DNA of 64,000 bases from Methanobacteriota archaeon (GTDB taxonomy: Archaea; Thermoplasmatota; Poseidoniia; MGIII; CG-Epi1). The notes beneath the pieces were generated by a model. That model was not told the DNA's origin and ran no database searches. It saw nothing but the letters and a program-made list of their open reading frames with translations. Made by a program: the position numbers and the translations under genes. Of this stretch, positions 2,744-37,047 are shown piece by piece. Positions within the stretch are counted from its first letter, which is position 1. Every line of letters begins with the position of its first letter. Location: assembly GCA_029977605.1 (NCBI GenBank), contig JAPOKN010000002.1, forward strand, positions 6,925 to 70,924, written 5' to 3'.

Positions 2744-4666
2744 ATGGCCGTAGAGGACGTAATTAAATTAGTAAAGAAAGTCGCAACCGAAGTTATTCCA
2801 GACACTATCACATTCACTGATGTGAAAGTGGAAGCTTCGAACGTAGTACTGTATACACCAAATCTGGAAATATTTTCCGACAATAATGATTTAATCCGGA
2901 AATTAGCCCAGAATGTAAGGAAAAGAATAGTAATCAAAGCTGATTCTAGTGTTAGAAAGCCAATTATAGCTGCTAAACAGAAACTTAAGGAAATATTGCC
3001 AGACGAAGCTGGAATTGTCGATACGAGGTTTGACGAAATAAATGGTGATGTAATTTTAGAAGCTACTAATCCTGGAAGAGCTATTGGAAAACACGGCGTT
3101 GTTTTGAACCAAATTAGAAGAGAAATCGGATGGAATCCAGTCATAATAAGATCATCACCAATGGAGTCACGAACTTTGAAAGACATAAGAAATTATATGT
3201 TAGAAGATAAAGTGGCTGAAGGGCGTAAGAAATTCTTAACAAGGGTTGGCAAAAAAATATTCAGAGATACAATTCCCGGTGAGCAACACGTAAGAGTTAC
3301 AGCTCTTGGAGGATATCGAGAAGTCGGAAGGTCGTGTCATCTTTTGATGACAAAAGACAGTAAAGTTTTGGTAGACTGTGGATTTAACCCTGGCAATGAG
3401 AAAGAACCAAGCCCATTTTTGAGTGCTCCAGAAGTAACTCCTTTGGAAGGAATAGATGCTGTAGTATTAACACATGCACATCTAGATCATTCAGCTCTTT
3501 TACCTATGCTTTTCGTTTATGGTTTCGATGGGCCCATTTACTGCACTCCACCAACAAGAGAATTATCTTCGTTACTACAAAATGATTTTATTAAAATTCA
3601 GAATTCTGAAGGTAAAAAAGTTCCCTACAATACCGAACAAATACGGCAAGCAATAAGAAACACCATACCTCTAAATTATGGAGACACTACTGACGTTTCA
3701 CCGGATTTGAAGTTAACTTTTCATAATTCAGGACATATATTAGGCTCTGCCGCAGCTCATTTTCACGTAGGTGACGGGCAATACAACCTTGTATTTTCAG
3801 GAGACATTAAATTTGAAAATACTTGGCTTTTCGACAGAGCAGTAAATCACTTTCCAAGACTTGAAGGGTTAATTATGGAATCCACATACGGAGGTTACAA
3901 CGATTTCCAACCGGCTAGAGAGGAAGGTTCTCGTACACTATATGAAATAATTAATAGAACCGTTGAGAAAAAAGGTAAAATTTTGATTCCGGTGTTTGCC
4001 GTAGGTAGGTCACAAGAAGTCATGCTTGTTTTGGAAAAGCTTCATTCAGAAGGGAAATTGAAAGATATGCCCGTTTATCTTGACGGAATGATATGGGAAG
4101 CTACTGCCCTACACTCGGCCTATCCAGAATACTTGAATAATAATCTAAGAAATAAAGTTTACCAAAATCAAGACAACCCTTTTAGATCTGAAATTTTTAA
4201 TAAAGTAGAAAGCACCGAAATGAGACAAGAAATATGCGGCAGAGAAGAACCTGCTATTGTATTGGCAACATCTGGCATGGTTAACGGGGGACCTGTAATG
4301 GAATATCTGAGGCATTGGGCACCAGATTTCAATAGCACAATGGTGTTTGTTGGATATCAAGCAGCAGGAACAATGGGTCAAAGAGTGCAGCAAGGTGCAA
4401 AAGAAATACACTTACATGACCGTGAGAAGGGAGGCACTATTCCAGTCAAAGTTAATATGAACATAGAAACTTGTGAAGGATTCTCCGGACACAGCGATAA
4501 GAGACAATTAATGAGATATTTAAGAACAATTCGACCAAGGCCTAAAATTGTTCTATTAAACCACGGAGATCCTCAAAAATGTGAGCAATTTGCCAATGAT
4601 ATTAGAAGAAAGGTAAGGCTTGATGCTAGAGTTCCTAGCAACTTAGAAACTATAAGGTTCATGTAA
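2744..4666 (+). CDS. aCPSF1-type KH-domain / metallo-beta-lactamase / beta-CASP ribonuclease (archaeal termination/cleavage factor family)
   Basis: 640 aa. N-terminal KH-like region (GRAIGKHG), then the metallo-beta-lactamase motif THAHLDHS, then beta-CASP C-terminal motifs (GFSGHSD, LNHGD). Placement next to a proteasome subunit gene is a common archaeal arrangement. Confidence 0.9.
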   Translation: MAVEDVIKLVKKVATEVIPDTITFTDVKVEASNVVLYTPNLEIFSDNNDLIRKLAQNVRKRIVIKADSSVRKPIIAAKQKLKEILPDEAGIVDTRFDEINGDVILEATNPGRAIGKHGVVLNQIRREIGWNPVIIRSSPMESRTLKDIRNYMLEDKVAEGRKKFLTRVGKKIFRDTIPGEQHVRVTALGGYREVGRSCHLLMTKDSKVLVDCGFNPGNEKEPSPFLSAPEVTPLEGIDAVVLTHAHLDHSALLPMLFVYGFDGPIYCTPPTRELSSLLQNDFIKIQNSEGKKVPYNTEQIRQAIRNTIPLNYGDTTDVSPDLKLTFHNSGHILGSAAAHFHVGDGQYNLVFSGDIKFENTWLFDRAVNHFPRLEGLIMESTYGGYNDFQPAREEGSRTLYEIINRTVEKKGKILIPVFAVGRSQEVMLVLEKLHSEGKLKDMPVYLDGMIWEATALHSAYPEYLNNNLRNKVYQNQDNPFRSEIFNKVESTEMRQEICGREEPAIVLATSGMVNGGPVMEYLRHWAPDFNSTMVFVGYQAAGTMGQRVQQGAKEIHLHDREKGGTIPVKVNMNIETCEGFSGHSDKRQLMRYLRTIRPRPKIVLLNHGDPQKCEQFANDIRRKVRLDARVPSNLETIRFM

Positions 4667-9291: not shown

Positions 9292-9870
9292 TTAATGCCA
9301 GCGATGATATGCAGGATGGCCTTCTTTTACTGCAACAAATAAGCCCCGACCTGTAGCACATGTCTTACCGTCTGCTTTCAACTCAATTATAACTTCGGCC
9401 CGGTCCTCCTGTAAAGCTAAAACTCTACTGTTTAGTTTTAACTTTATTCCTAGAGGTGTTGGCCTCTTTAACTTAATTTCATACTGAGCCGTTACAGTGC
9501 ATTGTGGTTTTTCCCAATTATTCTTATCCATTATTGCAATTGCTGCGGTCCAGTTTCCATGACAGTCAATCAGCGAACCTATAATGCCACCATTAATCAC
9601 TCCTGGAAAAGCTTGATGTTTTTCCTCACACTCAAACTCTGCAATAAGGCCGCCTTTAGAACGATAAGACTTGATCTGTAAACCGTCTTTGTTCGAAGGA
9701 CCGCAGCCGAAACATATAGAATTAGGTGCAAATTCGTCTTGAACTGGAAGTCCGCTCAAAATTGAATTTTTATTATCTGTCTTGATTTGTATATCTGCCT
9801 TATTTGATGGACTGCAATTAGAACAGCTGTGATCTGAGGAAAAAGAATCTTCAACAGTATGATCGCTCAT
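9292..9870 (-). CDS. hotdog-fold (PaaI-like) thioesterase with Cys-rich N-terminal extension
   Basis: 192 aa. CFGCGPSNKDGLQIK and GVINGGIIGSLIDCHGNW are typical of PaaI/4HBT-type thioesterases. Confidence 0.6.
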   Translation of the reverse strand: MSDHTVEDSFSSDHSCSNCSPSNKADIQIKTDNKNSILSGLPVQDEFAPNSICFGCGPSNKDGLQIKSYRSKGGLIAEFECEEKHQAFPGVINGGIIGSLIDCHGNWTAAIAIMDKNNWEKPQCTVTAQYEIKLKRPTPLGIKLKLNSRVLALQEDRAEVIIELKADGKTCATGRGLFVAVKEGHPAYHRWH

Positions 9871-11570
9871 GACAATTCCTTAATCTGTTCCTCTATTAAA
9901 CTTGCTGCGTACTCTAGAGTCTTATCATCGAATCTAAATTTAGCTCCTGCAGCTTCATATAAATCTGGAAGTGTTGCATTGCCACCAAGACCTAATGCAG
10001 CTTTGTAGTCTTCAATAGCTTTATTTTCATCCTCCAAGGAATTACCCCATATTTGTATTGCACCTAGCTGAGCCATTCCATATTCAACATAATAGAATGG
10101 AACATGGTAAATGTGTAACTTGTTGTGCCAACCTGTAGCAATTATGTCATCACATCCACTATAATCTATGTGCTCAGACATTTGAAATCTTTTCCAAAGG
10201 TTAGTCCATTCCTCGTCGCAATTATTTGGATCTAACGCATCTTCGGGGTTGGTATAGGCCCAGTGCTGAAATGCATCTACAACTGCCATATATGGCCAAA
10301 ACATAATGACTTTTTCTAAATGTTCAATTCTTGCCCTTGCAGAGTCTTGTTCAGAGTAGAAACCTCCATCTTTCTTAGTCAAGAAGGGAGAAGCTAGAAG
10401 TTCCATAGCCATTGATGCAACCTCAGCAAATTCCATTCCAACATCTCTTTGGCTGTTGTAGGGTAAATCCGCAGATTCAAAGACATGGAACGCGTGACCG
10501 CCCTCATGAATCATCGTCTGAACATCGCTATGTGTTCCAACGGCATTCATAAAGATGAAAGGTAGACGTTGATAGGGATATTCAGTACAATAACCACCGG
10601 GAGCTTTGCCCTTACGATTGCCTAAATCCAATAAGCCCTTCTTTCTCATTATCCCAAAATGATTGCCTAAGTCAGAATCTACTGAGCTAAATATATTATG
10701 ACATTTTTCTTCTAATTCACTAGCATTTTCAAAAGGAACAAGAGCCTCTCTTCCAAATATATCTACACTTAAGTCCCATGGTTTTAGTTTGTCGAGACCA
10801 AGTGCTTCCTTACGCTTTTGAAGTAATTTATTTGCTAAAGGTACAATGATCTTCTCGATAGAATCATGAAATGTTAAGCAATCATCAGGAGTGTAATCAA
10901 ATCTTTTCAAATATTCCCATCTCCAAGCTCTGTAGTCGTCATAACCTGAATTCTTAGCAATTGACATACGAATCTTGAGAATCTGCTTCCAAATTTGGTT
11001 TATCTCATCCCTATCCTTAAGTCTCCTGGCTGAAGCTAATTTCCAAGCTTTTTCACGTTCATTTCTATCTGTTTCTAGCATGACAGGAGATAATCGAGTT
11101 AACGTAACCTCTTCATCGTCCCAATTTACTGTTTGGGAACCTATAATCGCATCATATTCTTTTGATAGCTTCGCGTCGGAAGTGTGAAGAGGAAGATTAT
11201 CTTTTGAAAATAACTCCACTTCACTTTTCATTCCTCTCAAGGGAATTTCAAAATTGTCGGGTGATAATTCGGACTCTAAAAATTTTATTTTGAGTGTTTG
11301 GTTTCTAGAACTTACATTTTCACTTATGTCTTCAAGAAATCTGTGATACCTAGACTTAGCTTCTTCGTCTGCAGTGTCCACAGTAGTAGAAACATATACT
11401 GAGGTTCCAACTTCCCCAATTAGTTCAGATAAATCAGACCAATACTTCATCCAGTCTGAAATGTTTTCTGAAGTTAAACCTGAATTCTCCAAATAATCGA
11501 AAAAAGGAATATATTTATCCCAGGACCAATCCATCATTTGGCTGCTATCTTTTGGTAAGACATGATTCAT
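9867..11570 (-). CDS. pepF: M3-family oligoendopeptidase F-like metallopeptidase
   Basis: 567 aa. Zinc motif HEGGHAFH with a downstream EFAEVASM glutamate, and M3B length. Confidence 0.82.
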   Translation of the reverse strand: MNHVLPKDSSQMMDWSWDKYIPFFDYLENSGLTSENISDWMKYWSDLSELIGEVGTSVYVSTTVDTADEEAKSRYHRFLEDISENVSSRNQTLKIKFLESELSPDNFEIPLRGMKSEVELFSKDNLPLHTSDAKLSKEYDAIIGSQTVNWDDEEVTLTRLSPVMLETDRNEREKAWKLASARRLKDRDEINQIWKQILKIRMSIAKNSGYDDYRAWRWEYLKRFDYTPDDCLTFHDSIEKIIVPLANKLLQKRKEALGLDKLKPWDLSVDIFGREALVPFENASELEEKCHNIFSSVDSDLGNHFGIMRKKGLLDLGNRKGKAPGGYCTEYPYQRLPFIFMNAVGTHSDVQTMIHEGGHAFHVFESADLPYNSQRDVGMEFAEVASMAMELLASPFLTKKDGGFYSEQDSARARIEHLEKVIMFWPYMAVVDAFQHWAYTNPEDALDPNNCDEEWTNLWKRFQMSEHIDYSGCDDIIATGWHNKLHIYHVPFYYVEYGMAQLGAIQIWGNSLEDENKAIEDYKAALGLGGNATLPDLYEAAGAKFRFDDKTLEYAASLIEEQIKELS

Positions 11571-11606: not shown

Positions 11607-13976
11607 TTAATTGACTTTAAGAACTTTAAAAGTTGTTGGGCCTACTTTTACTTCATCGCCTTCTTTTGAACCCTCGAGTGATTTACCTATAGGGTTTGAC
11701 AACGGTATTTTCCCTTGCGGAATATTTGCATCTTCTTGGTTAACTAATTCAAAAGTGTGTTCTGTTTCCTTTGTCAAATTTTTAACAACTAGGCTAGTTC
11801 CTACAGAAGCTCCTGTCGATGAAGATGATTCAGCTTCTACAGGCTTATTCAAACTTTCAATACGTGCTTCCTTTATTTTATCTTCCAATTCTTTGTTACT
11901 ATCCGAAAGACTCTGAACCTCTGCATTCATTTCGTCAGCCATTTCTCTTTCTTTCGGTATTTCAATTTCCATCGCCTTAATCTTTCGCTCAGTATCTTCT
12001 TCACTGCCTATAGTTGTTCCTCGAAGGAATTCTAAATCTTCTTTTAGCTTTTCATGCTCTGTCTTCTCAGCCTCTAGCAATCTCTCTGCCTTATTTCTCT
12101 CATCAATGCTAATGTTTAGTTCCGCTTTGGCATCCTCAAATTGTTTCTTGAGTGTTTGCATAACTTTACTCACTTGTTGTGATGCATTTTCTAAAGCTGC
12201 TAAATCTTTCTGAGTCTTTTCTTTACTCCTAACTTCAATCTTTAATTCATCATCAATTTTCTTATTAGATTCTTTTTGATTGTCAACCTGCTCTTGTAAT
12301 TCCTTAAGCGAATCAGTCATACTAAGTATTTCATTTTCTTTTTGCCTGAATTGTTCACTACTTTGCTCGAGTTCAATTATTGTTTGCCTTTCAATATCTA
12401 ATTCATTCATCGTTAATGATGCCTTTTCTCTTGCGTCATTAAGTTCTTTCTTTGCCTTTTCTAAGTTTGTAGTCAATGTCGTAAATTTATCATTAATTCT
12501 TTTCTTATTTTTTTCCATTAATTTGACCTCTCTATCCAATTCTTTTCTTCTATTGATAGCCTCATTTCTTTCTGCAAGGGCCGATTTTTCCCTTTCATTA
12601 GCTTCTAAAGTATGTTGTTCCAATTCCATAATCTCTTTTTCTAAATTGTTCTTTTCTTGAACCGTTTTATCATATGAAGCTTTAACTGAATCATAAGACT
12701 CCAAAGCATTAACTGTATCTGGTTTCTCTAATTTCAATTTCCTCTCAGCGTCAACGGCTTTAGTTTCTGCGTCGTCACTCATGGTCCTTAGAGATCCTAT
12801 TTCTCTGGTCATCCTATCGCTAAGACGCATATCGTTTTCGTGTTTAGCTCTCAAATCTTCAATTTCTTTTTCAAGATTACTCTTTGCGGAAAGATCATCT
12901 AGCAACTCTTTCTCGGCCATTCTAGCTCTCTTCTCAACTTCAGATGTTGCAATTCTTGCAGTTTTCAATTTAGATTCTAGAGAACTATTAAGTGTATTCA
13001 CACTCTGATTTAAGGCTGTAATACGATCTAATTCGTTTTCTAAGTCATCAATACCGTCATAATCTATGTCACTGGTTGAAGCACGAACATCTTCAATTCT
13101 TTTTTCGGCCTCTTTCAACCTTTCTTCAGTATCTTCAAATTCTTGCATTAATTCTTTGCTTTTTTCTAACTCTCCGTCGTGGATTTTTTGCTGTCTTTCA
13201 ATTAGTTCCTGCTTTTTCAAAATCGCTTGCCATTCTTCATCGATATTTCCTAGTATGTAGAGCGTTCCTCCCCCAGTAAGAGCAGTACCTATCAAAACAA
13301 TAAAGAAACCTATTCCTGGACTCCAGGAAACTGGCCCTAATCTTCCAGTGATTCTATCAGCTTCCCCTGCTTGTAGCTGAACATATTCTTCACAATTTCC
13401 CTCGCCATAAAAAGTAAGTAAATTTTTGATACAACCCAGCTCTTTATTCGAATCCGAACCTTCAGTATTTGTTGAAGAAAGTGCTACTTCATCTTGTATT
13501 AATGCATCTGACCAAGTGGTGTAAAACAAAAAGGTTGACAAAAATCCTACTATGAGGACAATAATTGCAAAATATTTCAGATTCTTCAGCGCACTCCTCA
13601 AAGTATTCTGATGTAGACTACTAACTGCATTATTTGCCATGTAAGCAACTACCAAAGCTAAAAGGCCTGCTGCGTACGCAGTCATTTTAGCATTATTGGC
13701 GGAATCTACTTTGTTGAGACAATAAATACAGTCTTGACTATCGTAAGTAACTGAGTTACTATTTCCAGTAGTATCTGTCAGTAAATATGATTCCAAATAA
13801 TAGTGATACTGGAATGTATTATATTGAGTAACATTTCCAGTTACAGGATCTACGGTTTCTCTTGCTCCGTCAATTACAAACCATTTCCCGTAATCTCCAG
13901 TACTATTCACTGAAATTAGAATGCAAAGAAATGTAACAACTGCTACCGCTTGTATTTGTTGTAATTGCTCTTTCAT
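11607..13976 (-). CDS. membrane-anchored (about 4 TM) long coiled-coil protein with GreA/GreB-type C-terminal domain
   Basis: 789 aa. Hydrophobic segments lie in the first ~245 aa. About 450 aa are E/K/L/R-rich and helical. The last ~60 aa, HTFELVNQEDANIPQGKIPLSNPIGKSLEGSKEGDEVKV..FKVLKV, align by eye with the E. coli GreA C-terminus. Confidence 0.75.
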   Translation of the reverse strand: MKEQLQQIQAVAVVTFLCILISVNSTGDYGKWFVIDGARETVDPVTGNVTQYNTFQYHYYLESYLLTDTTGNSNSVTYDSQDCIYCLNKVDSANNAKMTAYAAGLLALVVAYMANNAVSSLHQNTLRSALKNLKYFAIIVLIVGFLSTFLFYTTWSDALIQDEVALSSTNTEGSDSNKELGCIKNLLTFYGEGNCEEYVQLQAGEADRITGRLGPVSWSPGIGFFIVLIGTALTGGGTLYILGNIDEEWQAILKKQELIERQQKIHDGELEKSKELMQEFEDTEERLKEAEKRIEDVRASTSDIDYDGIDDLENELDRITALNQSVNTLNSSLESKLKTARIATSEVEKRARMAEKELLDDLSAKSNLEKEIEDLRAKHENDMRLSDRMTREIGSLRTMSDDAETKAVDAERKLKLEKPDTVNALESYDSVKASYDKTVQEKNNLEKEIMELEQHTLEANEREKSALAERNEAINRRKELDREVKLMEKNKKRINDKFTTLTTNLEKAKKELNDAREKASLTMNELDIERQTIIELEQSSEQFRQKENEILSMTDSLKELQEQVDNQKESNKKIDDELKIEVRSKEKTQKDLAALENASQQVSKVMQTLKKQFEDAKAELNISIDERNKAERLLEAEKTEHEKLKEDLEFLRGTTIGSEEDTERKIKAMEIEIPKEREMADEMNAEVQSLSDSNKELEDKIKEARIESLNKPVEAESSSSTGASVGTSLVVKNLTKETEHTFELVNQEDANIPQGKIPLSNPIGKSLEGSKEGDEVKVGPTTFKVLKVN

Positions 13977-13999
13977 AGAGTTGATTTTACCAGACCTTC

Positions 14000-14007
14000 T
14001 ATTTAAA
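14000..14007 (-). promoter_or_regulatory. TATA box candidate (TTTAAATA on minus strand) 24 nt upstream of the ATG at 13976
   Basis: Exact match to the archaeal TTTAWATA consensus. The spacing implies a leaderless or near-leaderless mRNA. The same geometry occurs at 24941-24948 and 48335-48342. Confidence 0.4.
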
Positions 14008-14083
14008 GTTTTTGATTTTCACTGAGTACTAGTGTGAACAAAGCTATGAGATAACATTTTAATGGAGTAGTCTGTGAACGGCT

Positions 14084-17000
14084 ATGAAGGTCTGCCCAGT
14101 ATGTGAAATGGAAGAAGAGGATAGTGCTCTTTCATGTAGCATGTGTGGTTCTGATTTTGAACCTTCTGTTAAAGAGACTCCACAACAAGAATCGCCGGTC
14201 GACGTTCCCGAAGATATTTCTTCTGATATTGCTGAAATGAGTTTAGGTGATGTAGAAAAAACCGAACCTGAATCAGAAGTGACAAATGAATTAAGTGAAG
14301 AAGAAAAATTATTGGAAGAGACTCTAAGCGCTACTGAAACTGGAGCTTCAGAAGAAAAGTCTGAAAGTAGTTTCACAAAATTTACTGAACAGTTCTCAGA
14401 CATGGGAAAAATATTTGGCGACTTAAACAAAAGACTCGATGGAATATTCCTATCAAAAGGAGAATTGAATTACATTGCACCCTTAACTATAGTTGTACTT
14501 TCAATTTTATTACTTTCAGGAGTAATTGGATTGGCCGTATCTAGTGTACCTGGAACTGACCAAGAATCTTCAGATGGTTACAAACCTACTACACCCTACA
14601 ATAAGGAAATAAATGGAATTACTGTACTAATTGGAAGGGGAGTTGCTGAACCTTTCTCTGGAGAAGCATTCAACTGTGAAATTTGGGATAGTCAAATTTA
14701 CGAAGAGTTTCAAGAAGTTAACGATGAAGGATATTATATTCAATTAACTGACCGTAACGAAAATGGTACTGTCGATGATGAAGAAAGATACGGTTGTCCA
14801 GTCAACATGAAATTTATTAGTACTTTTTCATTTATTATTCTTAATCTTATACTGTTGACTACTGCATTTTACATTTACAACAAAGTTTCAAACACTGCAA
14901 TTATCATACCAGTTATAGGTTTCGCAGTTGTTGAAACTATTTTATTTGCAATATATGGCGGATTATTGAATAACGTTATTTTTGCATTACCTCTAACTAT
15001 TGGCCTCGTATGTACTGTAGGATTGATTGTAGCTTCAGGAGTTTTACTAATAAGAACCTCATTAGGACGTTCACTAAATGATCCTCCTAGTCTTACTTTC
15101 TACATATTTATCATAGCTGCAGCATTATTGTTTTCATCTGTTTTCTATAATTACTCACTTGGCCCTTACGCTATTTGTGACGGAGAATATACTCCCTCTG
15201 AGCTTCTCGATTTAAAAAATAATGTCCCAGAAGATTTAAGAACAGAATGTCAAAATAAAGGATATAAGAATTTGCAAGCCGTACCATTTGACTTAGGAAA
15301 TGGAAGTAACATGATACTACTACTATCTGCAACCTTCCTTTTCTTAGGAGTTGCTAATTCGCTAATTTCTAATACTAAGATTAATGATATTGACGAAGCA
15401 AAATACTTCTCCATGATTCTTTCTGGCCTTGGTCTACAATTTCTCATACTAGTTTTCAATGTAGTAACTAGTGAGGACGGGGGTTTGGGATTTGATGAAA
15501 ATGATACTGCACTAACTATCATGGCTCTTGGAGTAGCAACGATTGGAATGGTTTCATTTTATCGTAAAAGAAGAGGTGAAGCTGGATCAATGGGTGTTGC
15601 CTATTTCGTAATTTTTGCATCCGGAATTTTTGCTCTCTTCGGAACATTTATTGCCCCAGTAGTTCTTGGAGGCAATGACATTGAATGGCCTGAGGACGGG
15701 GATGAGCAATTTAATCTCGTCTTATCTGCTTTAGTTACAGCTGTAGGTTTCTGGCTAAGCTACAGATTTGGATCACAAAAATTGCGTGAACTTTCAATTG
15801 CTAGTGATGCAGCAATGCCTAATCGTCAGGATGCCTTTGCACCATCTGTTCCAGGGGAACAAAAGGCAATGCCCGAGTGGACTGTTGACTCAGCTATGGA
15901 GTTTTTAATGAACGAATATGGCGATGAATTCCAAGTTGAACTTAAACACACTACAGAACACACACCTGATCTCGAATTAGTTGAAAAAACAATGATGGAT
16001 ACTGTGGATCAATCGGTTGAAATCAGACAGGCAATAGAAGTTGACTACGATGTAGATTTCCATGAAATAGCTGAAGCATACTCTACTACGCAAGAAACTG
16101 TTGATGAAGTAATAACTCATTTAACTTCTGGTAAGAACATTATGCTTTTCGGAGAACCTGGAACTGGTAAAACTGCACTATCAAACATATTATTGACAAA
16201 ATTGTGTGGTGAAATTGAGCAACCAAATGGTAGCATGGCTCCAAATTACACTATTGTTACAGCGAATGCAGAATGGTCTAATTTCGATGTTATTGGCGGT
16301 ATCTCACCTGATGACTCTGGAGGATACTACTTCAAAGATGGATATGTAGCTGAAGCTGCAAAATTATGTGAAAAATCAATTCGTGAAAGAGGTAAACCTC
16401 ACTATCTTGTAATTGATGAGTTTAATCGAGCGAATATTGATGAAGCATTTGGTAAATTGTTTACTGTTTTCGAGTATAGAGATAAGCAACCTTTACTAAC
16501 GCACAAAGAAACTGGAGGAGCTCCATTCATGATGCCACCAGAGTTCCGTATTATAGGAACTATGAATACTCAGGATAAAAATACATTATTCAACGTTGGT
16601 TTTGCTCTAATGCGACGTTTTGCTTTTGTTGAAATTGGATTGCCTCTCCCTGAAGATGAATACCACCGTATGCCTGTTTTTGTTTACTTTAAGCTCAAAA
16701 AGCTTGGACTAGTTCCAGACAGACCGGATGGTGATGGTTTATGGAAATTTGGAGAAAAATGCCGACACTTCCCACAAAAGAAATTTGACTTCTACGACGA
16801 TGATGGAAACATGTACGCTTGTCACGAGAAACTGGTTAAATTTTTGGCACCCGGCGAACCACCTAAACGAGGCGACGAAACCCCTCTTGGAGTACGTACC
16901 TTTAGAAAAATTGGACCCGCATTACTTATCGATTCAATGGTTACTATATTTAATTCAATTAAGAAATATGGCCCAGAATTAGCCTTGGACAGAGTCATTA

Positions 17001-17149
17001 GATCCAACATAATGCCTTCACTTGAGGGTTTGGAAAGAAATGAAATAAGGTGCATGTTCTTACATGCGAAAGAAGTGCTTGGCCCTACTTCAATAGTTAC
17101 GGAAACTCTAGACAGAATGGCTAATTCAGACAGTCTAAGTTTATTCTAG
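14084..17149 (+). CDS. zinc-ribbon / acidic linker / ~10-TM / McrB-family (AAA_5-like) NTPase fusion protein
   Basis: 1021 aa. N-terminal CPVCx12CSMC. About 90 aa of D/E/S-rich linker. About 10 hydrophobic helices (aa ~128-565). Walker A GEPGTGKT (nt 16151-16174), Walker B LVIDEFNRANIDEAFGKLF, and IIGTMNTQDKN....ALMRRFAFVEI, which are the McrB-family signatures. Confidence 0.8.
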   Translation: MKVCPVCEMEEEDSALSCSMCGSDFEPSVKETPQQESPVDVPEDISSDIAEMSLGDVEKTEPESEVTNELSEEEKLLEETLSATETGASEEKSESSFTKFTEQFSDMGKIFGDLNKRLDGIFLSKGELNYIAPLTIVVLSILLLSGVIGLAVSSVPGTDQESSDGYKPTTPYNKEINGITVLIGRGVAEPFSGEAFNCEIWDSQIYEEFQEVNDEGYYIQLTDRNENGTVDDEERYGCPVNMKFISTFSFIILNLILLTTAFYIYNKVSNTAIIIPVIGFAVVETILFAIYGGLLNNVIFALPLTIGLVCTVGLIVASGVLLIRTSLGRSLNDPPSLTFYIFIIAAALLFSSVFYNYSLGPYAICDGEYTPSELLDLKNNVPEDLRTECQNKGYKNLQAVPFDLGNGSNMILLLSATFLFLGVANSLISNTKINDIDEAKYFSMILSGLGLQFLILVFNVVTSEDGGLGFDENDTALTIMALGVATIGMVSFYRKRRGEAGSMGVAYFVIFASGIFALFGTFIAPVVLGGNDIEWPEDGDEQFNLVLSALVTAVGFWLSYRFGSQKLRELSIASDAAMPNRQDAFAPSVPGEQKAMPEWTVDSAMEFLMNEYGDEFQVELKHTTEHTPDLELVEKTMMDTVDQSVEIRQAIEVDYDVDFHEIAEAYSTTQETVDEVITHLTSGKNIMLFGEPGTGKTALSNILLTKLCGEIEQPNGSMAPNYTIVTANAEWSNFDVIGGISPDDSGGYYFKDGYVAEAAKLCEKSIRERGKPHYLVIDEFNRANIDEAFGKLFTVFEYRDKQPLLTHKETGGAPFMMPPEFRIIGTMNTQDKNTLFNVGFALMRRFAFVEIGLPLPEDEYHRMPVFVYFKLKKLGLVPDRPDGDGLWKFGEKCRHFPQKKFDFYDDDGNMYACHEKLVKFLAPGEPPKRGDETPLGVRTFRKIGPALLIDSMVTIFNSIKKYGPELALDRVIRSNIMPSLEGLERNEIRCMFLHAKEVLGPTSIVTETLDRMANSDSLSLF

Positions 17150-21987: not shown

Positions 21988-22923
21988 TTAGATATGTATA
22001 TCTATGTTCAAAAATTGTGCCATTTCCTTATATCTGCTTCTAATTGTAACTTCGGTTAAATCTGCCGCTCTTGCAACATCTTTCTGCTTTCTTCTTTCAT
22101 TATTTACAATAGATGCTATGTAAACTGCTGCAGCTGCAAGGGAAATTGGAACTGAGTTGGTCAGTGGAACATCTTGTGCTGCCCTTAATAAATCTCTAGC
22201 AGCCCCTTCAACTTTTGGAGACAATTCTAATTTAGAACAAATACGAGGTAAGTAATCTTCTGGTAAAGGCGGCATCGAATGCATTTTCAAAGCTTTAACC
22301 ATTACCTGATATGTTCTAGAAATTTCTTTTCTTGAATAACGACTGTGCCTACTAATTTCGGTAAGAGTTCTAGGAACTCCTTCCTGCCTACATGCTGCAT
22401 ATAGTGCCGCACAGGCAACCATTTCAATTGCCCTACCGCTCAAAGATTGTTCTTGTATGGCTCTTCTGTAGATGAAAGCAGCAGTCTCTTGAATCCTTCT
22501 TGGTAGCTTCAAATTCGTGGCTACAGCCTGCATTTCACGCATAGCTACTGCCATGTTTCTCTCTGCAGACTTAGATGCGCGAGCTCTTCTTTGCCATTTT
22601 CTCATTCTGAAAAGCATTGACTGATTCTTATTCGAAATGGATCTTCCATAATAATCTCTATTAGTTGGGGAAATTTCAGTTGACAATCCTTTATCTGGAA
22701 GTGTAGTTGACATTGGAGGTCCAGCCCTTGCAAGAGCATTTTCTTGTTGCATGTCAAATGCTCTCCACTCAGGACCTGTGTCAACAATATTATCTTCTAA
22801 AACCAAACCACAATCTGCACAGACAATTTCTGCATGATCATAATCGCGTTTCAAATGTGTTCCCTTACAATCTGGACAAGCTGTTATTTCGTCAACACTA
22901 CCGTCTTCGTTTTTGTCTGCCAT
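21988..22923 (-). CDS. tfb: transcription initiation factor TFB (TFIIB), full-length
   Basis: 311 aa. Zn ribbon CPDCx..CADCG, B-reader GPEWRAF, and two cyclin repeats. Confidence 0.92.
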   Translation of the reverse strand: MADKNEDGSVDEITACPDCKGTHLKRDYDHAEIVCADCGLVLEDNIVDTGPEWRAFDMQQENALARAGPPMSTTLPDKGLSTEISPTNRDYYGRSISNKNQSMLFRMRKWQRRARASKSAERNMAVAMREMQAVATNLKLPRRIQETAAFIYRRAIQEQSLSGRAIEMVACAALYAACRQEGVPRTLTEISRHSRYSRKEISRTYQVMVKALKMHSMPPLPEDYLPRICSKLELSPKVEGAARDLLRAAQDVPLTNSVPISLAAAAVYIASIVNNERRKQKDVARAADLTEVTIRSRYKEMAQFLNIDIHI

Positions 22924-25549: not shown

Positions 25550-29685
<4,136 letters not shown>

Positions 29686-29758
29686 AGTAACTGTTATGCA
29701 TTAAAGAGGTGATAATAAATAGTTCTTCTCATGTAAATATCAAGCCCTTATTGTAGAT

Positions 29759-32700
29759 ATGTACATGATTCGAGACGTAAAATGGAAAAAAAACTTTGTT
29801 ACTTTGGCGATTTTAGCCTTAGCAATTACAGTTTATATGCCAACTTCTGAAGCTCAGGAAGACCCTTATATTGAAAATGTCATTTACTCAAAAGGATCAG
29901 AGGAGAGCTCCACAATTGTTCTAAGTGGGAGAGATAATGCTACATTTTACAGATATTTGATTTTAGACGACTACTCACAAGCGCCCACAAACTGGTTTGA
30001 ATCTGATTTTAACGATTCTACATGGAGTTTTGGTGCAGCTCCTTTCGGCGATAGATCAGTCAGCGGAGTTGAACCCAATTTAATTTGGAATACTCAGGGA
30101 AATTCTCCTTATGAGGATGATGTCATATTAGTCCGTCACAAATTCCAAATGAGTGGAATCGTAACATCTGCACAAATTGATGTGGCTTTTGCAAACTACT
30201 GTACACCATACCTAAACGGAAACATAATTTATGAGGAGAGAGGAGACAATAACCACGCACAAGAATATTGGAATGATGACGGAACAGAAGAAATAAGTGC
30301 TTCATCCTTTGAAATGGGCCAAAATGTATTGGCAGTTTATGCCAGAGATACAGGTCAAGGTACATGGGGTAATAGCAATAGACAATGGGTTGATCTTCAA
30401 ATAACTGCCAGTGTTTTCCAACCTACTAATGATTCTATTATTTTTGGAGATAGTGTAACTGTTGCCGTGAAAGGAGGAAATAAAGGCAACGTAAGCGCAG
30501 AAGAAGTGATCATTCAATCTTTCACAAATGAAACCACTATCAGTTCCACAAATTTGGCTATAACAGACCCAGGTTTTGAAGACTTAATTTTCTTCACGTG
30601 GACTCCAGATTACATAGGTGAAAATAGTCTTATTTTGCATATTTCGTGCAATTGCAGTGATGCAAATTTATCAAATAATAATTTGACTCTAAATATTACA
30701 ACAAAAATTTACCGTCTGAAAACTGAAATTGAAAATAATTTACAATATGTAAATCAAAGTCGAAATTTAGTGAAAATAGTTAGTATCACAAACAATGGTG
30801 GATTAACAGACAATGTAACTCTAATTCCATCCAATGGGGAAATTAATTCTCAGCTAACATTTAGTCCTAACAATTTCATTCTTAATCCAGGAGAATCAAA
30901 AAACGTTACCATAAGTGCACAATTACCGCTATCAATTGAAGATGGCTTTCATAATATTTCATTCGAGGTAAAGACTCAGCATGACTATACAATAAGCGAA
31001 TATCTAGTTAATAACGGGATAAATACTGAAGTTGCCTGGAAATGGATAGAATCCGATGGTTATGAAGAACTATATGGTAATGCTAACTGGACTACTCTTG
31101 GATTTAATGATACCAATTGGTTAAATGCTAGTACACCTTTTGGAGATAGTTCTGTCGATGGAGTTAATTACAGAACTTTGTGGGATGAAGATAATTATGC
31201 TTACTTTAGATATATTTTGAACATAAATGATATTGGAGTTTATAAAAATGGCATAATGAACATTAATGTTGCCAGCAATAATTTTGGTGACCACTATATC
31301 AATGGAATATTTGTTTTTGGAGATATGGATGAAGGTAATGGACATGGTGCAGAATACTGGAATGATGAGGTACAAGTTTTCACAAATTATCTTTTGGAAG
31401 GGGAAAATGTTATTGCAAGCGTAATTGGAAATCCGCAAAATAGTCAATGGTTTGACCAAGAAATAATAGTTACATTTCCACAAGCTAACCTATGGAACTA
31501 TGAAGATATTACATACAACGTCCCTATATTTGTTGATACAACAGCTCCTTCAACTAAAGTAAATGAAAATGGATTCTATAAAAATTCAACAAATATACCT
31601 CTAACGTGGAAAGAAATATCTGATGATGGTGATCTCGAAGGATTTTACTTGTACTATCAAATGAAAGATGGAACTTCACTAGGAGATTGGATGCTTTACG
31701 GTTATTATGATACAATATTTGCTACTAACTTTTCAGCAGAAAATGGAATGATTTATCGATTTAGGACTATTGGTATCGATGTGTACGGAAACAAAGAGAT
31801 AAAGGGAACTTACGATACAGAAGTTAAAATTGATATGGATTTACCTAGATCGGAACTTTGGCTAAGTGAAGGGGATATTCAATATACAAACCTAGATGGA
31901 GTAACAATAAATTGGAAAGAAAATGAAACTTCAGACATTCAAGGATATTTCATAGAATACAAAAATATTGATGAGACTTCTTGGGAGAACTATGGACTAT
32001 TTACTGGAATCGGCGAATATTGGTTCGAGCCTGAATCTGATGGAACATACCTAATCAGATCCAGGAGTATTGACTATTCGGGAAATAAAGAGCTAAAAGA
32101 AGTTCCTGACATAACGATAACGTTTGACAGAATGAAGCCTTTAGTAAGTTTAAATCATATCAATATCTTAAGAGATACAGGAGAATTAACACTATCAATT
32201 AAAGAAAAGTCCGAAAATTTATCTTCACTGGATATTGAGTTTGCCAGACTAGATGAGAATAACGAAGATATATTAGATTGGAAGTCGTTCGACGAGGAAT
32301 GGCTGAATGAGGAGTTCATAATCAGAAATCTTGTTGACGGATATACTTATTATTTTAGAATAAACCCTGAAGATTACGCCGGAAACAATTATCCTAGAGA
32401 GGAATTTGAATTTATATTCAATTATGAAGATAATAATACTAAAGAAATACTACTTCCAACAATACCCCTTAAACCTGTAATGACAGGTAAAATAAAAAAT
32501 GTTGAAATTACTGTAGACGAAAATTTAAACGGAATTTACGATAAGATTCTTCAAGAGTACAACGGTAATGATTTGTCTGGAATGAAAGCAAATCAATATT
32601 GGATTGATTATGAAGAAGGTAAACTAGTATTTGGGAATGGAGATGTTGGCTACCTACCACCTGTAAACTCATCTATATCTATAATCTACTCAGGATATGA

Positions 32701-33391
32701 CTTGGTCACTACTATCGATAACAATCCTCCAATGCCAGTTCAAAACGTAGAATACCTAATCAGTGACGAAAACAATGTAACTATAGAGTGGAATGAGCCT
32801 GAAGATGCAGTTTCTTATATTATTGAGAGTAGAGATAACTTTTCGAGACCATGGGAAATATTAGAGATTATTGACTACACAAAAAATAAGATGGTTTATG
32901 AGATTTCCAATCTCAGTGGAGGATTTCATTATTACAGAATTATTTCTGTCGATCGAATGGGGTATCAGAATGCTGACATGGAAGATGAATTTCTCGAAAT
33001 ATTTATAGAATATGAAAATATTAACAGCGCTACAAGTGGAGGCAGTAGTTCTACTGTAATTAACAATTACATAATTGTTACGAGTCTTCTAGTTTTGACT
33101 GCTATTGCCTCAGCTGCTTATGTTTTCAGAAATAAAAACGAAGAAGTCACAATTAATGTAGATAATTCAAGTATTCTTGTTCCTGTTGAATTGCTTAATG
33201 AAGAACAAATTAATTCTGCTGAAGAGGAAAAGCCTACCTTTAGCGTTGTTCAAGGAAGCCAATTTTCTCGTACCACTGTTTTCGTGTGTATTGGAGGATG
33301 TCAAAGTAAATTTGAAAATGTGAACGACGGTGACGATGGAAATGAAATTATGTGCCCACATTGTGGATTAATCGGAGATTCACCAATTTAG
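29759..33391 (+). CDS. giant cell-surface protein: signal peptide, two jelly-roll-like modules, CARDB/FN3-like repeats, C-terminal TM and cytoplasmic zinc ribbon
   Basis: 1210 aa. N-terminal hydrophobic signal. Duplicated module (W..SDFNDSTWSFGAAPFGD.. / W..GFNDTNWLNASTPFGD..). At least four FN3-like units (..W.E..D..GY.I.Y.. YRFRT.G.D..GN). TM IIVTSLLVLTAIASAAYVF. Terminal Cx3C...CPHCG. Confidence 0.78.
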   Translation: MYMIRDVKWKKNFVTLAILALAITVYMPTSEAQEDPYIENVIYSKGSEESSTIVLSGRDNATFYRYLILDDYSQAPTNWFESDFNDSTWSFGAAPFGDRSVSGVEPNLIWNTQGNSPYEDDVILVRHKFQMSGIVTSAQIDVAFANYCTPYLNGNIIYEERGDNNHAQEYWNDDGTEEISASSFEMGQNVLAVYARDTGQGTWGNSNRQWVDLQITASVFQPTNDSIIFGDSVTVAVKGGNKGNVSAEEVIIQSFTNETTISSTNLAITDPGFEDLIFFTWTPDYIGENSLILHISCNCSDANLSNNNLTLNITTKIYRLKTEIENNLQYVNQSRNLVKIVSITNNGGLTDNVTLIPSNGEINSQLTFSPNNFILNPGESKNVTISAQLPLSIEDGFHNISFEVKTQHDYTISEYLVNNGINTEVAWKWIESDGYEELYGNANWTTLGFNDTNWLNASTPFGDSSVDGVNYRTLWDEDNYAYFRYILNINDIGVYKNGIMNINVASNNFGDHYINGIFVFGDMDEGNGHGAEYWNDEVQVFTNYLLEGENVIASVIGNPQNSQWFDQEIIVTFPQANLWNYEDITYNVPIFVDTTAPSTKVNENGFYKNSTNIPLTWKEISDDGDLEGFYLYYQMKDGTSLGDWMLYGYYDTIFATNFSAENGMIYRFRTIGIDVYGNKEIKGTYDTEVKIDMDLPRSELWLSEGDIQYTNLDGVTINWKENETSDIQGYFIEYKNIDETSWENYGLFTGIGEYWFEPESDGTYLIRSRSIDYSGNKELKEVPDITITFDRMKPLVSLNHINILRDTGELTLSIKEKSENLSSLDIEFARLDENNEDILDWKSFDEEWLNEEFIIRNLVDGYTYYFRINPEDYAGNNYPREEFEFIFNYEDNNTKEILLPTIPLKPVMTGKIKNVEITVDENLNGIYDKILQEYNGNDLSGMKANQYWIDYEEGKLVFGNGDVGYLPPVNSSISIIYSGYDLVTTIDNNPPMPVQNVEYLISDENNVTIEWNEPEDAVSYIIESRDNFSRPWEILEIIDYTKNKMVYEISNLSGGFHYYRIISVDRMGYQNADMEDEFLEIFIEYENINSATSGGSSSTVINNYIIVTSLLVLTAIASAAYVFRNKNEEVTINVDNSSILVPVELLNEEQINSAEEEKPTFSVVQGSQFSRTTVFVCIGGCQSKFENVNDGDDGNEIMCPHCGLIGDSPI

Positions 33392-33428
33392 AACCAGTTA
33401 TCTTTAATTTGTACTCCTTTAACCATAC

Positions 33429-34703
33429 ATGACTAAAAGCTCAGAAGCTCCAGGTTTTTACAAAAAAGACCCATCTGAAAGATTAGATTTTGTTAAGAAC
33501 TTTGCAAACTTAACAGAAGACGAAATGAAAACAATTAGCGGATACGGAGCTCTTGGAAAGGACACTGCAAATCGAATGATTGAAAACGTAGTCGGCACAT
33601 TTCCACTACCTCTAGGTTTTGCTCCAAATTTTCAAATTAATGGTAAGGACTACATCGTACCTATGGCAGTAGAAGAACCATCAGTTGTTGCTGCAGCTAC
33701 ACATATGGCAAAAGGTGCACGTAAAATGGGAGGAATATCTGCGAGTTCTGATGAACCTGTAATGATTGGCCAAATTCAACTTGTAAATCTTAAAGATCCT
33801 TTCAAGGCAAAAGAAGATATATTAAATAAAAAAGATGAAATCGTTAAACTTGCAAACGAACAAGACCCTATCTTAGTAAAATTTGGTGGAGGATGTAAGG
33901 GGATTGAAGTAAGAGTTTTAGATTCACAAACTGGACCTATGGTGATAACGCATTTATTAGTTGATTGTAGAGATGCAATGGGTGCTAATGCGGTGAATAC
34001 AATGGCTGAAGCTGTTGCTCCAAGGTTAGAAACCATAACCGGTGGAAGAGTTTACTTACGAATTATTTCGAACTTAGCTATACATCGTAAGACTAAGGCC
34101 ACAGCAATTTGGCCAGCTGAATTTTTAGGTGGAGAAGAAATTGTTGATGGAATTATAGAAGCTTTTGCGTTTGCTTGCGCAGATCCATTCCGTGTAGCTA
34201 CCCACAATAAAGGCATAATGAATGGAATAGATCCTGTTGTAATTGCCACTGGAAATGATTGGAGAGCTATTGAGGCTGGTGCACACACATACTCGAATTG
34301 GAAAGAAGGACATTCTTCTTTTACTGATTGGGAAAAAACTGAAGATGGAGACTTAAGAGGAACAATCGAAATTCCTATGGCTATTGGATTAGTTGGTGGT
34401 GCGACTGCAACACATCCAACGGCTAAAACTTGCGTGAAAATATTAGACGTTAAAATTCCTGGAGGTGCAGCTGAGTTATCTCAGGTAATCTGCGCAGTAG
34501 GATTATGTCAAAACCTTGGTGCACTTAGGGCCCTTGCATCCGAAGGAATTCAGAGAGGGCACATGGGATTACATGCAAGAAACTTAGCAGTGCAAGCTGG
34601 AGCTGAAGGAAAGGAAATTGATATCCTTGCAGAAAAACTAAAGCAATCCGGAAAAGTAAGGGCTGATATAGCAGAAAAACTATTAACTGAAATAAGAAAA
34701 TAA
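33429..34703 (+). CDS. hmgA: HMG-CoA reductase (class II-like)
   Basis: 424 aa. MAVEEPSVVAAATH, DAMGANAVNTMAE and GIQRGHMGLHARN are catalytic-region motifs of HMGR. Confidence 0.9.
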   Translation: MTKSSEAPGFYKKDPSERLDFVKNFANLTEDEMKTISGYGALGKDTANRMIENVVGTFPLPLGFAPNFQINGKDYIVPMAVEEPSVVAAATHMAKGARKMGGISASSDEPVMIGQIQLVNLKDPFKAKEDILNKKDEIVKLANEQDPILVKFGGGCKGIEVRVLDSQTGPMVITHLLVDCRDAMGANAVNTMAEAVAPRLETITGGRVYLRIISNLAIHRKTKATAIWPAEFLGGEEIVDGIIEAFAFACADPFRVATHNKGIMNGIDPVVIATGNDWRAIEAGAHTYSNWKEGHSSFTDWEKTEDGDLRGTIEIPMAIGLVGGATATHPTAKTCVKILDVKIPGGAAELSQVICAVGLCQNLGALRALASEGIQRGHMGLHARNLAVQAGAEGKEIDILAEKLKQSGKVRADIAEKLLTEIRK

Positions 34704-35933: not shown

Positions 35934-35998
35934 CAAACTTCCAAAAAACCTAATTTTAAATACGCTTCGGCAAATTACGAAGTCCCAAAAAGGTAAAC

Positions 35999-37015: not shown

Positions 37016-37047
37016 AGTTTAATATCTAAGCCATTAATTACCTCTGT

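Follow-up and report, generated by a model that had tools for sequence, protein, structure and literature searches.

Marine Group III archaea (MGIII; class Poseidoniia) possess a membrane protein that ends in a Gre-family C-terminal globular domain (Gre-C). We found its gene, hereafter gene A, in the window, that is, the whole 64,000-nucleotide stretch of DNA that was analysed. The combination of a membrane anchor, a long rod of fixed length and a Gre-C head in one polypeptide is a previously undescribed architecture. Gre-family domains are regarded as bacterial RNA-polymerase tools, while archaea use TFS. Therefore, a conserved and strongly selected Gre-C throughout an abundant uncultured archaeal order is unexpected. 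Gene A and its parts map to the window as follows:

11607..13976 including the stop codon, minus strand: gene A, membrane / rod / Gre-C protein, 789 aa (ORF with ATG start)
13242..13976, minus strand: residues 1-245, four-TM domain with an extracellular beta-sheet and a predicted claudin/TARP-like fold (AF2 and Foldseek)
11853..13241, minus strand: residues 246-708, alpha-helical coiled-coil rod of fixed length, continuous with TM4 (composition, heptad periodicity, model helices)
12786..12896, minus strand: residues 361-397 (…HENDMRLSDRMTREIGSLR), where conservation of the rod is highest; possible interaction site
11805..11852, minus strand: residues 709-724, flexible, length-variable, low-confidence linker (pLDDT <50)
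11610..11804, minus strand: residues 725-789, Gre-family C-terminal globular domain (Pfam PF01272, PDB 1grj, Foldseek)

The 789-aa ORF had been proposed in an initial annotation made from the DNA sequence. It has an ATG start, and it is not a chance reading frame, since homology search returned more than 90 clusters of homologues and the dN/dS ratio is ~0.02 in the TM domain, the rod and the head alike. Gene A is thus a real gene under strong purifying selection. The archaeal (Thermoplasmatota) host proposed at the same time turned out to be MGIII, as the window is ~97% identical to the MAG CG-Epi1. An exhaustive profile search confined the family to MGIII; among 1.84 billion representatives the full-length family forms only two 50%-identity clusters. 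The gene is present in one copy, belongs to the core genome and is found across MGIII, and its distant clade (locus L001) is only 32% identical to the main-clade orthologues. A search for which only the Gre-C head was used brought back nothing but fragments of the gene A family, which says nothing about Gre-C proteins of other archaea, and comparison of the gene A model with viral structures (Foldseek) gave no match with an E-value of 1e-3 or better. Nor did we find a characterised protein with such an arrangement, in keeping with the initial annotation: in the library that we searched, no paper describes a membrane-anchored Gre protein, a claudin-fold protein from a prokaryote or a Gre domain from MGII/MGIII. 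Two Ser/Leu/Phe-rich ORFs (11611-11916 and 12280-12660, both on the plus strand) lie antisense within gene A and are most simply read as by-products of its purine-rich coding strand.

By both sequence profile and predicted fold, the C-terminal domain of gene A is Gre-C. Pfam PF01272 (GreA_GreB C-term) matches residues 724-788 with an E-value of 1.4e-9 and 38.3 bits, compared with a gathering score of 26.9; the tail scanned alone reaches 43.6 bits. The single phmmer match of gene A in PDB is E. coli GreA (1grj, E 3e-6), which the family profile also detects (GreA, E 3.2e-8). Foldseek searches with the model returned GreA, GreB, Gfh1 (2f23/3aoh) and Rnk (3bmb). The nearest bacterial GreA proteins mostly carry no taxon label and so point to no donor lineage. 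The resemblance to the Gre C-terminus noted initially is therefore upheld by the profile and structure-database checks. The most conserved helix motif of Gre-C (xPIGxxLxG in GreA/GreB) is retained as well: the NPIGKSLEG helix is conserved in the gene A head and has a counterpart in GreA, with P762, L767 and G769 aligning with GreA P125, L130 and G132. The most defective globular-domain mutants of E. coli GreA are S124L and L130P (PMC7527559).

Apart from this homologous domain, gene A differs from GreA and GreB: it is archaeal, membrane-anchored and five times longer, and it has neither the N-terminal hairpin nor the acidic tip. The Pfam scan gave no match to the Gre N-terminal domain (PF03449). 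The tip motif GDLxENAEY is missing from gene A and not conserved in the family; GreA D41 aligns with a non-conserved position and E44 with M or K. In E. coli GreA these two residues constitute the acidic tip, which acts at the active-site Mg2+ (PMC7527559). Nominally, the family profile can be aligned with GreA residues 12-155. However, when rod residues 632-712 were made into an HMM, its median score was 3.1 bits on GreA N-domains and 2.9 bits on reversed ones, and control HMMs of other rod segments score GreA N-domains about equally. As there is no signal over the coiled-coil background, we rejected the idea that the rod is homologous to the coiled coil at the Gre N-terminus. In the predicted structure the head is preceded by one continuous 51-residue helix (659-709, low confidence) and no hairpin. 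All NCBIfam GreA/GreB equivalog scores fall far below their cut-offs (GreA, 43.5 bits at best versus 145; GreB, 18 bits versus 188 for the tail scanned alone). The initial annotation had seen here a Gre architecture stretched about tenfold, an idea that these results do not bear out: gene A is not a stretched Gre factor, because it lacks the catalytic acidic tip and because homology between its rod and the N-terminal coiled coil of Gre finds no support. Judged by its sequence, it is not a transcript-cleavage factor either, since both the N-terminal hairpin and the tip are absent. The fallback offered at the time, recruitment of Gre-C as a docking module, fits the data better.

There are bacterial precedents for Gre-C domains without cleavage activity. 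Rnk and Gfh1 bind RNA polymerase without stimulating cleavage, but both are small and soluble, and their short coiled coil, which is of the Gre type, reaches into the secondary channel, whereas the gene A head follows a membrane-tied 460-residue rod. The long-form GreA of spirochaetes and chlamydiae (NCBIfam NF011309, ~900 aa), a weak match (E 2e-4), likewise carries its Gre module at the C-terminus of a much larger protein. Long-form GreA has full Gre N- and C-domains and is soluble, and its extension is not a membrane-anchored rod.

The rod, which is probably cytoplasmic, consists of 17.8% E, 12.2% K and 10.4% L (residues 246-708) and contains just two Pro and five Gly (residues 246-705). 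An uninterrupted E/K/L/R-rich helical region of ~450 aa had been described initially; a long helical rod is indeed present, but it is nearly rather than strictly uninterrupted, with AF2 helices at residues 222-300, 307-417, 419-654 and 659-709. Its length is almost invariant, with hardly any indels, between orthologues that are just 32% identical, and in 106 of 112 sequences TM4 and the DMRLSDRM motif are 140 aa apart. Selection on the rod is strong (dN/dS 0.016). Conservation peaks in the block of residues 361-397, which includes invariant alignment columns and may be an interaction site; over residues 361-390, identity to the window sequence reaches 0.88 when all orthologues are counted and 0.68 for those of the 32%-identity clade. 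The linker between rod and head is near-neutral (dN/dS 0.1-0.9) and represents the only indel-rich stretch of the cytoplasmic region. SMC and Rad50 models of NCBIfam match gene A weakly and only in the coil (29.9 bits versus a cut-off of 567), and gene A has no ABC-type ATPase heads or hinge; we rejected an SMC/Rad50 identity. The relationship of gene A to SMC/Rad50/ASRP proteins, as well as to bacterial EzrA, which similarly combines a membrane anchor with a long coiled coil in the cytoplasm, is limited at the sequence level to coiled-coil composition.

For the N-terminal region, the initial annotation had described about four hydrophobic helices and Cys-containing outside loops, both of which are recovered. 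The hydropathy scan detected TM1, TM3 and TM4, with TM2 slightly below the threshold, and AF2 places helices at residues 2-24, 87-119, 126-168 and from 222 onward. In the outside loops, C82/C85 (DCIYC) occur in the main clade only and C182/C195 are invariant; N-x-S/T sequons are found at residues 24 and 48. The order of elements in the model is TM1, four strands, TM2, a short loop, a long TM3, two strands and TM4, so that the extracellular sheet receives four strands from loop 1 and two from loop 2. The pLDDT is ~80 for residues 1-245 in a single model of the whole protein, built from 11 fairly similar sequences and having a pTM of 0.35.

The initial annotation had not noticed the fold that is predicted for this anchor, namely a claudin/TARP-like one. 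Foldseek matched the anchor model to claudins, TARPs and DUOXA1 with a probability of 1.00, E-values from 5e-5 to 1e-3 and TMt up to 0.68 (claudin-9 6ov3_A, E 6.5e-5, TMt 0.62; TARP gamma-7 entry 9s41_I, TMt 0.68). As in claudin/TARP/PMP22 proteins and DUOXA1, the modelled domain has four TM helices with a long TM3, a sheet formed by loop 1 (four strands) and loop 2, and both termini on the cytoplasmic side, with a C-terminal tail that would reach cytoplasmic partners. TARPs and DUOXA1 are auxiliary subunits of polytopic membrane proteins. There are also differences from the claudin superfamily in addition to the archaeal origin. The Pfam scan of the anchor listed no claudin family even with E-values up to 10. 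The superfamily signature, W…GLW…C…C in extracellular loop 1, is absent: loop 1 of gene A has W32 and a CxxC that is missing from the distant clade, while the invariant pair C182/C195 is in loop 2. To our knowledge, the claudin superfamily has been described in eukaryotes only, and literature search gave nothing to the contrary. If the prediction is right, the anchor would bring to archaea a fold that is known from the cell junctions of eukaryotes and from auxiliary subunits of channels.

Gene A is divergently paired with a second membrane protein gene, gene B, and the following features belong to this pair:

13999..14010, minus strand: TATA-like box of gene A, AACTTTAAATAG on the gene strand, ~28 nt upstream of the start codon
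14050..14065, plus strand: TATA-like box of gene B, G[A/T]TAACATTTTAATG, ~25 nt upstream of the start codon
14084..17149, plus strand: gene B, 1021 aa (ORF; divergent neighbour of gene A)
16064..16639, plus strand: residues ~661-852, McrB-family AAA+ domain of gene B (Pfam AAA_5, NCBIfam McrB, PDB McrB)

The two genes are head-to-head and adjacent in all 24 loci with full upstream sequence, a strict pairing that the initial annotation had missed. The surroundings (tRNA synthetase, TFB, FttA, PCNA and proteasome genes) represent a core-genome setting with conserved synteny. The TATA-like box of gene A occurs in the window and, the high-GC distant clade included, at each of the 20 related loci compared, and that of gene B is conserved in main-clade loci; both boxes probably act as promoters. 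It is the gene adjacency, and this only, that points to a possible physical complex of A and B.

Gene B has a zinc ribbon (CPxC…CxxC) at its N-terminus, a disordered stretch rich in acidic residues, 10 TM helices with four Cys that are extracellular and invariant, and a cytoplasmic AAA+ domain. The latter matches Pfam AAA_5 (2e-19), NCBIfam McrB (8.6e-19, below the equivalog cut-off) and PDB McrB structures (6hz4/6ut6, E 1e-19; GEPGTGKT, IDEFNRAN and MNTQDK aligned). Its core, with Walker A GEPGTGKT, Walker B LVIDEFNRAN, the signature MNTQDK and RRF, is nearly invariant across the family. By its motifs and matches, gene B is a bona fide McrB-type GTPase, in agreement with the McrB-like neighbour named initially. 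The gene B profile found only the McrB AAA+ core in PDB; neither the zinc ribbon nor the TM region nor the last 170 residues had a match there. The AF2 model of gene B was kept out of the fold search, because at a pLDDT of 44 any matches would be meaningless.

Genetic coupling of an McrB-type GTPase to a long coiled-coil protein is a property that the pair shares with McrBC/CoCoNuT/CoCoPALM systems. CoCoPALM is a computationally described clade in which the McrB GTPase is fused to an FtsB-like TM-plus-coil domain (PMC11090510). CoCoNuT and CoCoPALM systems are characterized by an NxD-variant motif, an McrC homolog, coiled coils fused to McrB/McrC, and nucleases or pilus-assembly genes (PMC11090510). 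In contrast, gene B has the canonical NxxD signature, and a zinc ribbon with 10 TM helices takes the place of the DNA-binding N-domain of McrB. No McrC or nuclease gene adjoins it in the window or in loci L001-L003, nor are there signal-peptidase neighbours at the loci examined. The pair also differs in belonging to the core genome and in having a partner that ends in Gre-C.

Our preferred reading, which we advance tentatively, is that A may be one half of a two-gene, MGIII-specific membrane module made of a claudin/TARP-like anchor, a fixed rod, a Gre-C docking head and the McrB-type GTPase B. A would assemble in the membrane with the divergently encoded 10-TM GTPase, perhaps in the way the tetraspans TARP and DUOXA1 dock onto polytopic membrane partners. 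The rod would fix how far the head stands from the membrane, which for a fully extended rod would be up to ~70 nm. For the head and the GTPase we infer the following. The head would bind a coiled-coil-type surface; RNA polymerase is the leading candidate, since Gre-C has just one known ligand, the coiled coil at the rim of that enzyme's secondary channel; otherwise the partner would be B itself or some other protein. By hydrolysing GTP, the B ring would then remodel or gate the assembly. Two points speak against this reading: the beta' rim helices to which Gre-C is known to bind are bacterial, and McrB rings normally require McrC, for which no candidate gene is present. If the head still binds RNA polymerase, the module would be a new link between transcription and membrane in archaea; if it does not, the Gre-C fold would have been reused as a general docking module. 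The strict pairing with a 10-TM McrB-type GTPase suggests a non-defence, membrane-embedded context for this ATPase family.

Somewhat unlikely, and the strongest of the alternatives, is an envelope-linked scaffold without a role in transcription: a membrane skeleton, cell-shape or division element resembling EzrA-type rods, in which Gre-C would be a docking knob for B, another A or a cytoskeletal protein. This would suit a rod that is as constrained as a globular domain, fixed in length and provided with a highly conserved internal block, in a single-copy core gene found across MGIII that has lost all Gre catalytic features. The claudin-like anchor would be in line with it too, by analogy with eukaryotic claudin-type tetraspans, whose tails bind scaffolds. 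However, all characterised Gre-C domains (GreA, GreB, Gfh1 and Rnk) bind RNA polymerase, and the loci examined show no cytoskeletal gene such as ftsZ, cetZ or sepF in linkage with A and B.

A more elaborate form of the module is distinctly unlikely. Here, A would be an archaeal membrane-to-transcription tether, with a claudin-fold surface domain, a rigid ~70 nm rod and a horizontally acquired Gre-C head placed on the secondary-channel rim of RNA polymerase, and B would load, release or pull. Were it true, MGIII cells would couple the state of the envelope or surface directly to RNA polymerase location or activity, and the anchor would be the first claudin-fold surface domain seen in a prokaryote.

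More doubtful still is that A and B are neighbours by synteny only, so that A would work by itself as a tether or sensor in the membrane and its position next to B would mean nothing for function. Each gene has its own promoter-like box, the two do not form one operon, and the main clade has also kept much of the gene order around them. Nevertheless, the distant clade keeps A and B head-to-head amid different neighbours, and searches with either gene return only MGIII/Poseidoniia-type marine contigs (a few records are labelled SAR202 or Chloroflexi).

We consider it very improbable that the pair is an anti-virus defence, that is, a nuclease-less McrBC or CoCoNuT-like system that senses infection and acts at the membrane. 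Membership of gene B in the McrB family and the computationally known coupling of McrB GTPases to long coiled-coil proteins, the CoCoPALM clade included (PMC11090510), are compatible with defence. Yet PADLOC models gave no significant match (the best were coil or P-loop fragments with E 1e-4 or weaker), McrC and nuclease genes are absent from the loci examined, the signature is not the CoCoNuT variant, and CoCoNuTs are nearly absent from archaea (PMC11090510). The pair, moreover, is single-copy and under extreme purifying selection in a housekeeping region of conserved synteny. Defence islands are usually variable.

Finally, it is scarcely credible that A is a working Gre-like elongation/cleavage factor that acts in the secondary channel of archaeal RNA polymerase and is special only in its membrane anchor: despite the genuine Gre-C domain, the nominal alignment to GreA and a database label, this possibility is already largely refuted by the missing N-domain and tip, the rod scores at the reversed-control level, the equivalog scores (43.5 bits versus 145 or more), the single helix instead of a hairpin, and TFS, which fills the Gre-type role in archaea (PMC7026648). 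The label in question, 'GreA/GreB family elongation factor', is the existing name of the gene A protein in some database records; it is misleading, and its propagation is inadvisable.

The membrane-tethered protein under study is the product of gene A, a 789-aa open reading frame with an ATG start. The features of the window referred to throughout are the following:

9292-9870 (-), thioesterase-like gene
9867-11570 (-), M3-family oligoendopeptidase gene
11607-13976 (-), gene A
12786-12896 (-), residues 361-397 of A, mid-rod
13242-13976 (-), residues 1-245 of A, membrane anchor
13977-14083, 107-bp spacer between A and B
14084-17149 (+), gene B, 1021 aa, divergent from A

Homologues of A were found over an identity range of 32-97%. 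Comparison with close orthologues gives dN/dS values of about 0.02 for the membrane domain, 0.016 for the rod and 0.03-0.06 for the C-terminal head, and the 16-residue linker preceding the head (709-724) is near-neutral (0.1-0.9). Judged by these homologues and the low dN/dS, A is a genuine gene. In its product, a membrane anchor is followed by a rod of fixed length, a flexible linker and finally a Gre-C head; the gene is strongly constrained and has a core-genome location. The initial annotation, which described the ORF, hydrophobic helices, cysteine-containing loops, an E/K/L-rich helical rod and a Gre-C tail, was accurate on each of these points.

Residues 724-788 match the Pfam GreA_GreB C-terminal family (PF01272; E 1.4e-9, 38.3 bits, gathering score 26.9), so that the Gre C-terminal domain proposed initially is confirmed by profile search. 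Scanned alone, the tail scores 43.6 bits, and among all PDB sequences its sole match is E. coli GreA (1grj, E 3e-6). Foldseek matches to the head region of the predicted model include GreA, GreB, Gfh1 and Rnk. The best-conserved Gre-C helix motif is also retained, with NPIGKSLEG aligning to its GreA counterpart. The nearest functional analogues of the head are Rnk and Gfh1, non-cleaving relatives of Gre factors.

Gre factors themselves are defined by an N-terminal hairpin, in which D41 and E44 at the tip act at the catalytic Mg2+, and their globular domain binds the rim helices of beta' (PMC7527559). The Pfam scan of A detected no Gre N-domain family. The GDLxENAEY motif is missing, the aligned positions being variable within the family, and A scores far under the cut-offs of the NCBIfam GreA and GreB equivalog models. 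Since the A family profile aligns nominally to GreA residues 12-155, we examined the coil on its own. An HMM built from residues 632-712 gave a median of 3.1 bits against 51 GreA N-domains and 2.9 bits against the same domains reversed; unrelated rod segments gave 1.9-2.8 bits. Homology of the coil to the Gre N-domain was rejected, as its score lies at the level of the coiled-coil background. Sequence comparison thus supports homology to Gre factors for Gre-C only: the head belongs to the Gre C-terminal domain family, but the protein as a whole is no Gre factor, and the earlier picture of a Gre architecture stretched tenfold has to be abandoned.

The anchor has four hydrophobic helices, of which TM1, TM3 and TM4 pass the hydropathy scan and TM2 falls marginally below the threshold. 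In the AlphaFold2 model they span residues 2-24, 87-119, 126-168 and 222 onward, TM3 being abnormally long, and carry an extracellular sheet (domain pLDDT ~80) with strands from loop 1 (33-42, 49-59, 63-67, 73-77) and loop 2 (191-199, 208-220). Among the outside cysteines, C182 and C195 are invariant; C82 and C85 (DCIYC) are restricted to the main clade of low-GC orthologues. A Foldseek search of the PDB matched the anchor to DUOXA1, to a number of TARP gamma subunits and to four claudins (claudin-3, -4, -9 and -19) (probability 1.00, E 5e-5 to 1e-3, target TM-scores up to 0.62-0.68). The Pfam scan of A detected no claudin family, and the claudin loop-1 signature was not found. The resemblance to claudins is therefore one of predicted fold, from a single model with a shallow alignment, and not of family membership. 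We know of no earlier description of a claudin-type fold from archaea.

The rod begins as a direct continuation of TM4. Residues 246-705 are rich in E (17.8%), K (12.2%) and L (10.4%) and include just two prolines and five glycines; they follow a heptad pattern whose register shifts several times, and the modelled helices cover 222-300, 307-417, 419-654 and 659-709. Of 112 sequences, 106 have exactly 140 residues between TM4 and the DMRLSDRM motif (141 in the divergent, 32%-identity clade), and differences in total length among orthologues are confined to the linker. Residues 361-397 (…HENDMRLSDRMTREIGSLR) show the highest conservation of the entire protein between the two clades and look like a candidate binding site rather than a spacer.

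Several minor observations concern the same region. GC skew (-0.23) and AT skew (-0.22) at 12001-14000 are the most negative of the 64 kb, consistent with a purine-rich (GAA/AAA) rod coding strand on the minus strand. This composition would also account for the Ser/Leu/Phe-rich ORFs on the opposite strand inside A (11611-11916 and 12280-12660), which look like its by-products. In one 846-aa database protein (P0092), an Asn/Ile-rich N-terminal region unrelated to A precedes a stretch matching rod residues ~455-655 (74% identity), after which the protein stops abruptly; a chimeric assembly or a truncated gene call is the probable cause.

Gene B encodes, in addition to an acidic disordered stretch, an N-terminal invariant CPxC…CxxCG zinc ribbon (Pfam zinc-ribbon matches are generic and below threshold), ten TM helices with invariant or nearly invariant extracellular cysteines (C198, C238, C365, C389), and a cytoplasmic McrB-type AAA+ domain (Pfam AAA_5 2e-19; NCBIfam McrB 8.6e-19; PDB McrB E 1e-19). 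GEPGTGKT, LVIDEFNRAN, MNTQDK and RRF align with McrB. The AAA+ core (~720-850) is almost invariant, whereas other parts of the family diverge to ~50% identity, and residues 853-1021 have no match in Pfam or the PDB. The predicted structure of B has a pLDDT of 44, too low for interpretation. A word-based homologue search returned this B family only. In the divergent clade, B is better conserved than A (51-53% versus 32-33% identity). The two genes stand head-to-head wherever the locus extends far enough upstream (all 24 loci that include the full gene); B is strictly co-inherited with A. The spacer holds two TATA-like boxes, ~28 nt upstream of the A start codon and ~25 nt upstream of that of B; the former is kept in all loci compared, including the high-GC clade, and the latter in main-clade loci. 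This arrangement suggests back-to-back promoters with very short or absent leaders.

The window is ~97% identical to the MAG 'Marine Group III euryarchaeote CG-Epi1' and contains genes for TFB, PCNA, FttA, HMG-CoA reductase and a proteasome subunit, all hallmarks of archaea. A species-representative scan yielded 29 loci, 28 of which bear the label MGIII, Poseidoniia, Thermoplasmatota or 'uncultured archaeon'; the exception, L030, encodes a normal GreA of Saccharibacteria. We also ran an exhaustive HMM search with the full-length A profile against 1.84 billion representative proteins. The full-length family formed two 50%-identity clusters only, plus fragments of both: the low-GC main clade (contigs of 35-41% GC) and the 32%-identity clade (L001, L027, L028 and L029; 52-62%). 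The next-best matches were ordinary bacterial GreA proteins of ~155 aa, aligned at the C-terminal end only (E 1e-10 to 1e-6). The family thus spans MGIII lineages of differing GC, and none was found outside them in this search, in agreement with the archaeal host assigned initially. Several short divergent-clade contigs are publicly labelled SAR202, Chloroflexi or Dehalococcoidia, probably through binning errors, since longer contigs of this clade carry archaeal genes such as Nre.

How A and B might work together can be outlined tentatively; taken as a whole, the following explanation is plausible, if somewhat short of probable. The loops of A with cysteines and N-x-S/T sequons would lie on the outside and the basic TM2-TM3 loop on the inside, an orientation placing rod and head in the cytoplasm, the side required for the B GTPase domain. 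By analogy with TARP and DUOXA1 tetraspans on their polytopic partners, A may dock laterally onto the TM domain of B. If extended, the rod could set the head up to ~70 nm from the membrane (460 residues x 0.15 nm; model pTM 0.35). The head would bind a coiled-coil-type surface, and the B GTPase ring might remodel the assembly. RNA polymerase is the leading candidate target because every characterised Gre-C domain known to us binds it; even so, we regard it as unlikely, and the head may instead bind B or another protein. An A-B scaffold independent of transcription is possible but doubtful. That A and B are neighbours through synteny alone is improbable: in the distant locus L001 they are still head-to-head, though the remaining neighbours are unrelated. 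Still less probable is a defence module. B is an McrB-family GTPase without the remaining McrBC components, and no McrC-like or nuclease gene adjoins it in the window or in the related loci L001-L003. McrB GTPases are likewise coupled to coiled coils in CoCoNuT and CoCoPALM, systems known from computational work, but these differ from A-B in possessing McrC, nucleases or pilus genes as well as the NxD motif, and are nearly absent from archaea (PMC11090510). A working Gre factor is hardly credible, and the name 'GreA/GreB family elongation factor' in some database entries over-interprets the single Gre-C domain. In the literature searched, neither this architecture nor the gene pair was described; A-B is built from known modules.

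The M3 peptidase and thioesterase-like genes follow A on the same strand in the 23 loci reaching far enough downstream, including high-GC L028 and L029 but not L001, and represent conserved synteny. The genes for FttA (aCPSF1), a transcription termination factor, and for TFB, at 2744-4666 (+) and 21988-22923 (-), flank the A-B pair at ~8 kb or less. Since L001 does not share this arrangement, their proximity is probably a matter of core-genome synteny and not of function. Further along, large envelope or secreted proteins are encoded in a cluster at 26809-40515, in which the HMG-CoA reductase gene (33429-34703) and two smaller ORFs are interspersed. They comprise a membrane protein of the MMPL family (958 aa), a protein of 1210 aa that weakly matches fibronectin-III, and an M6-peptidase protein of 1155 aa containing three PKD domains.
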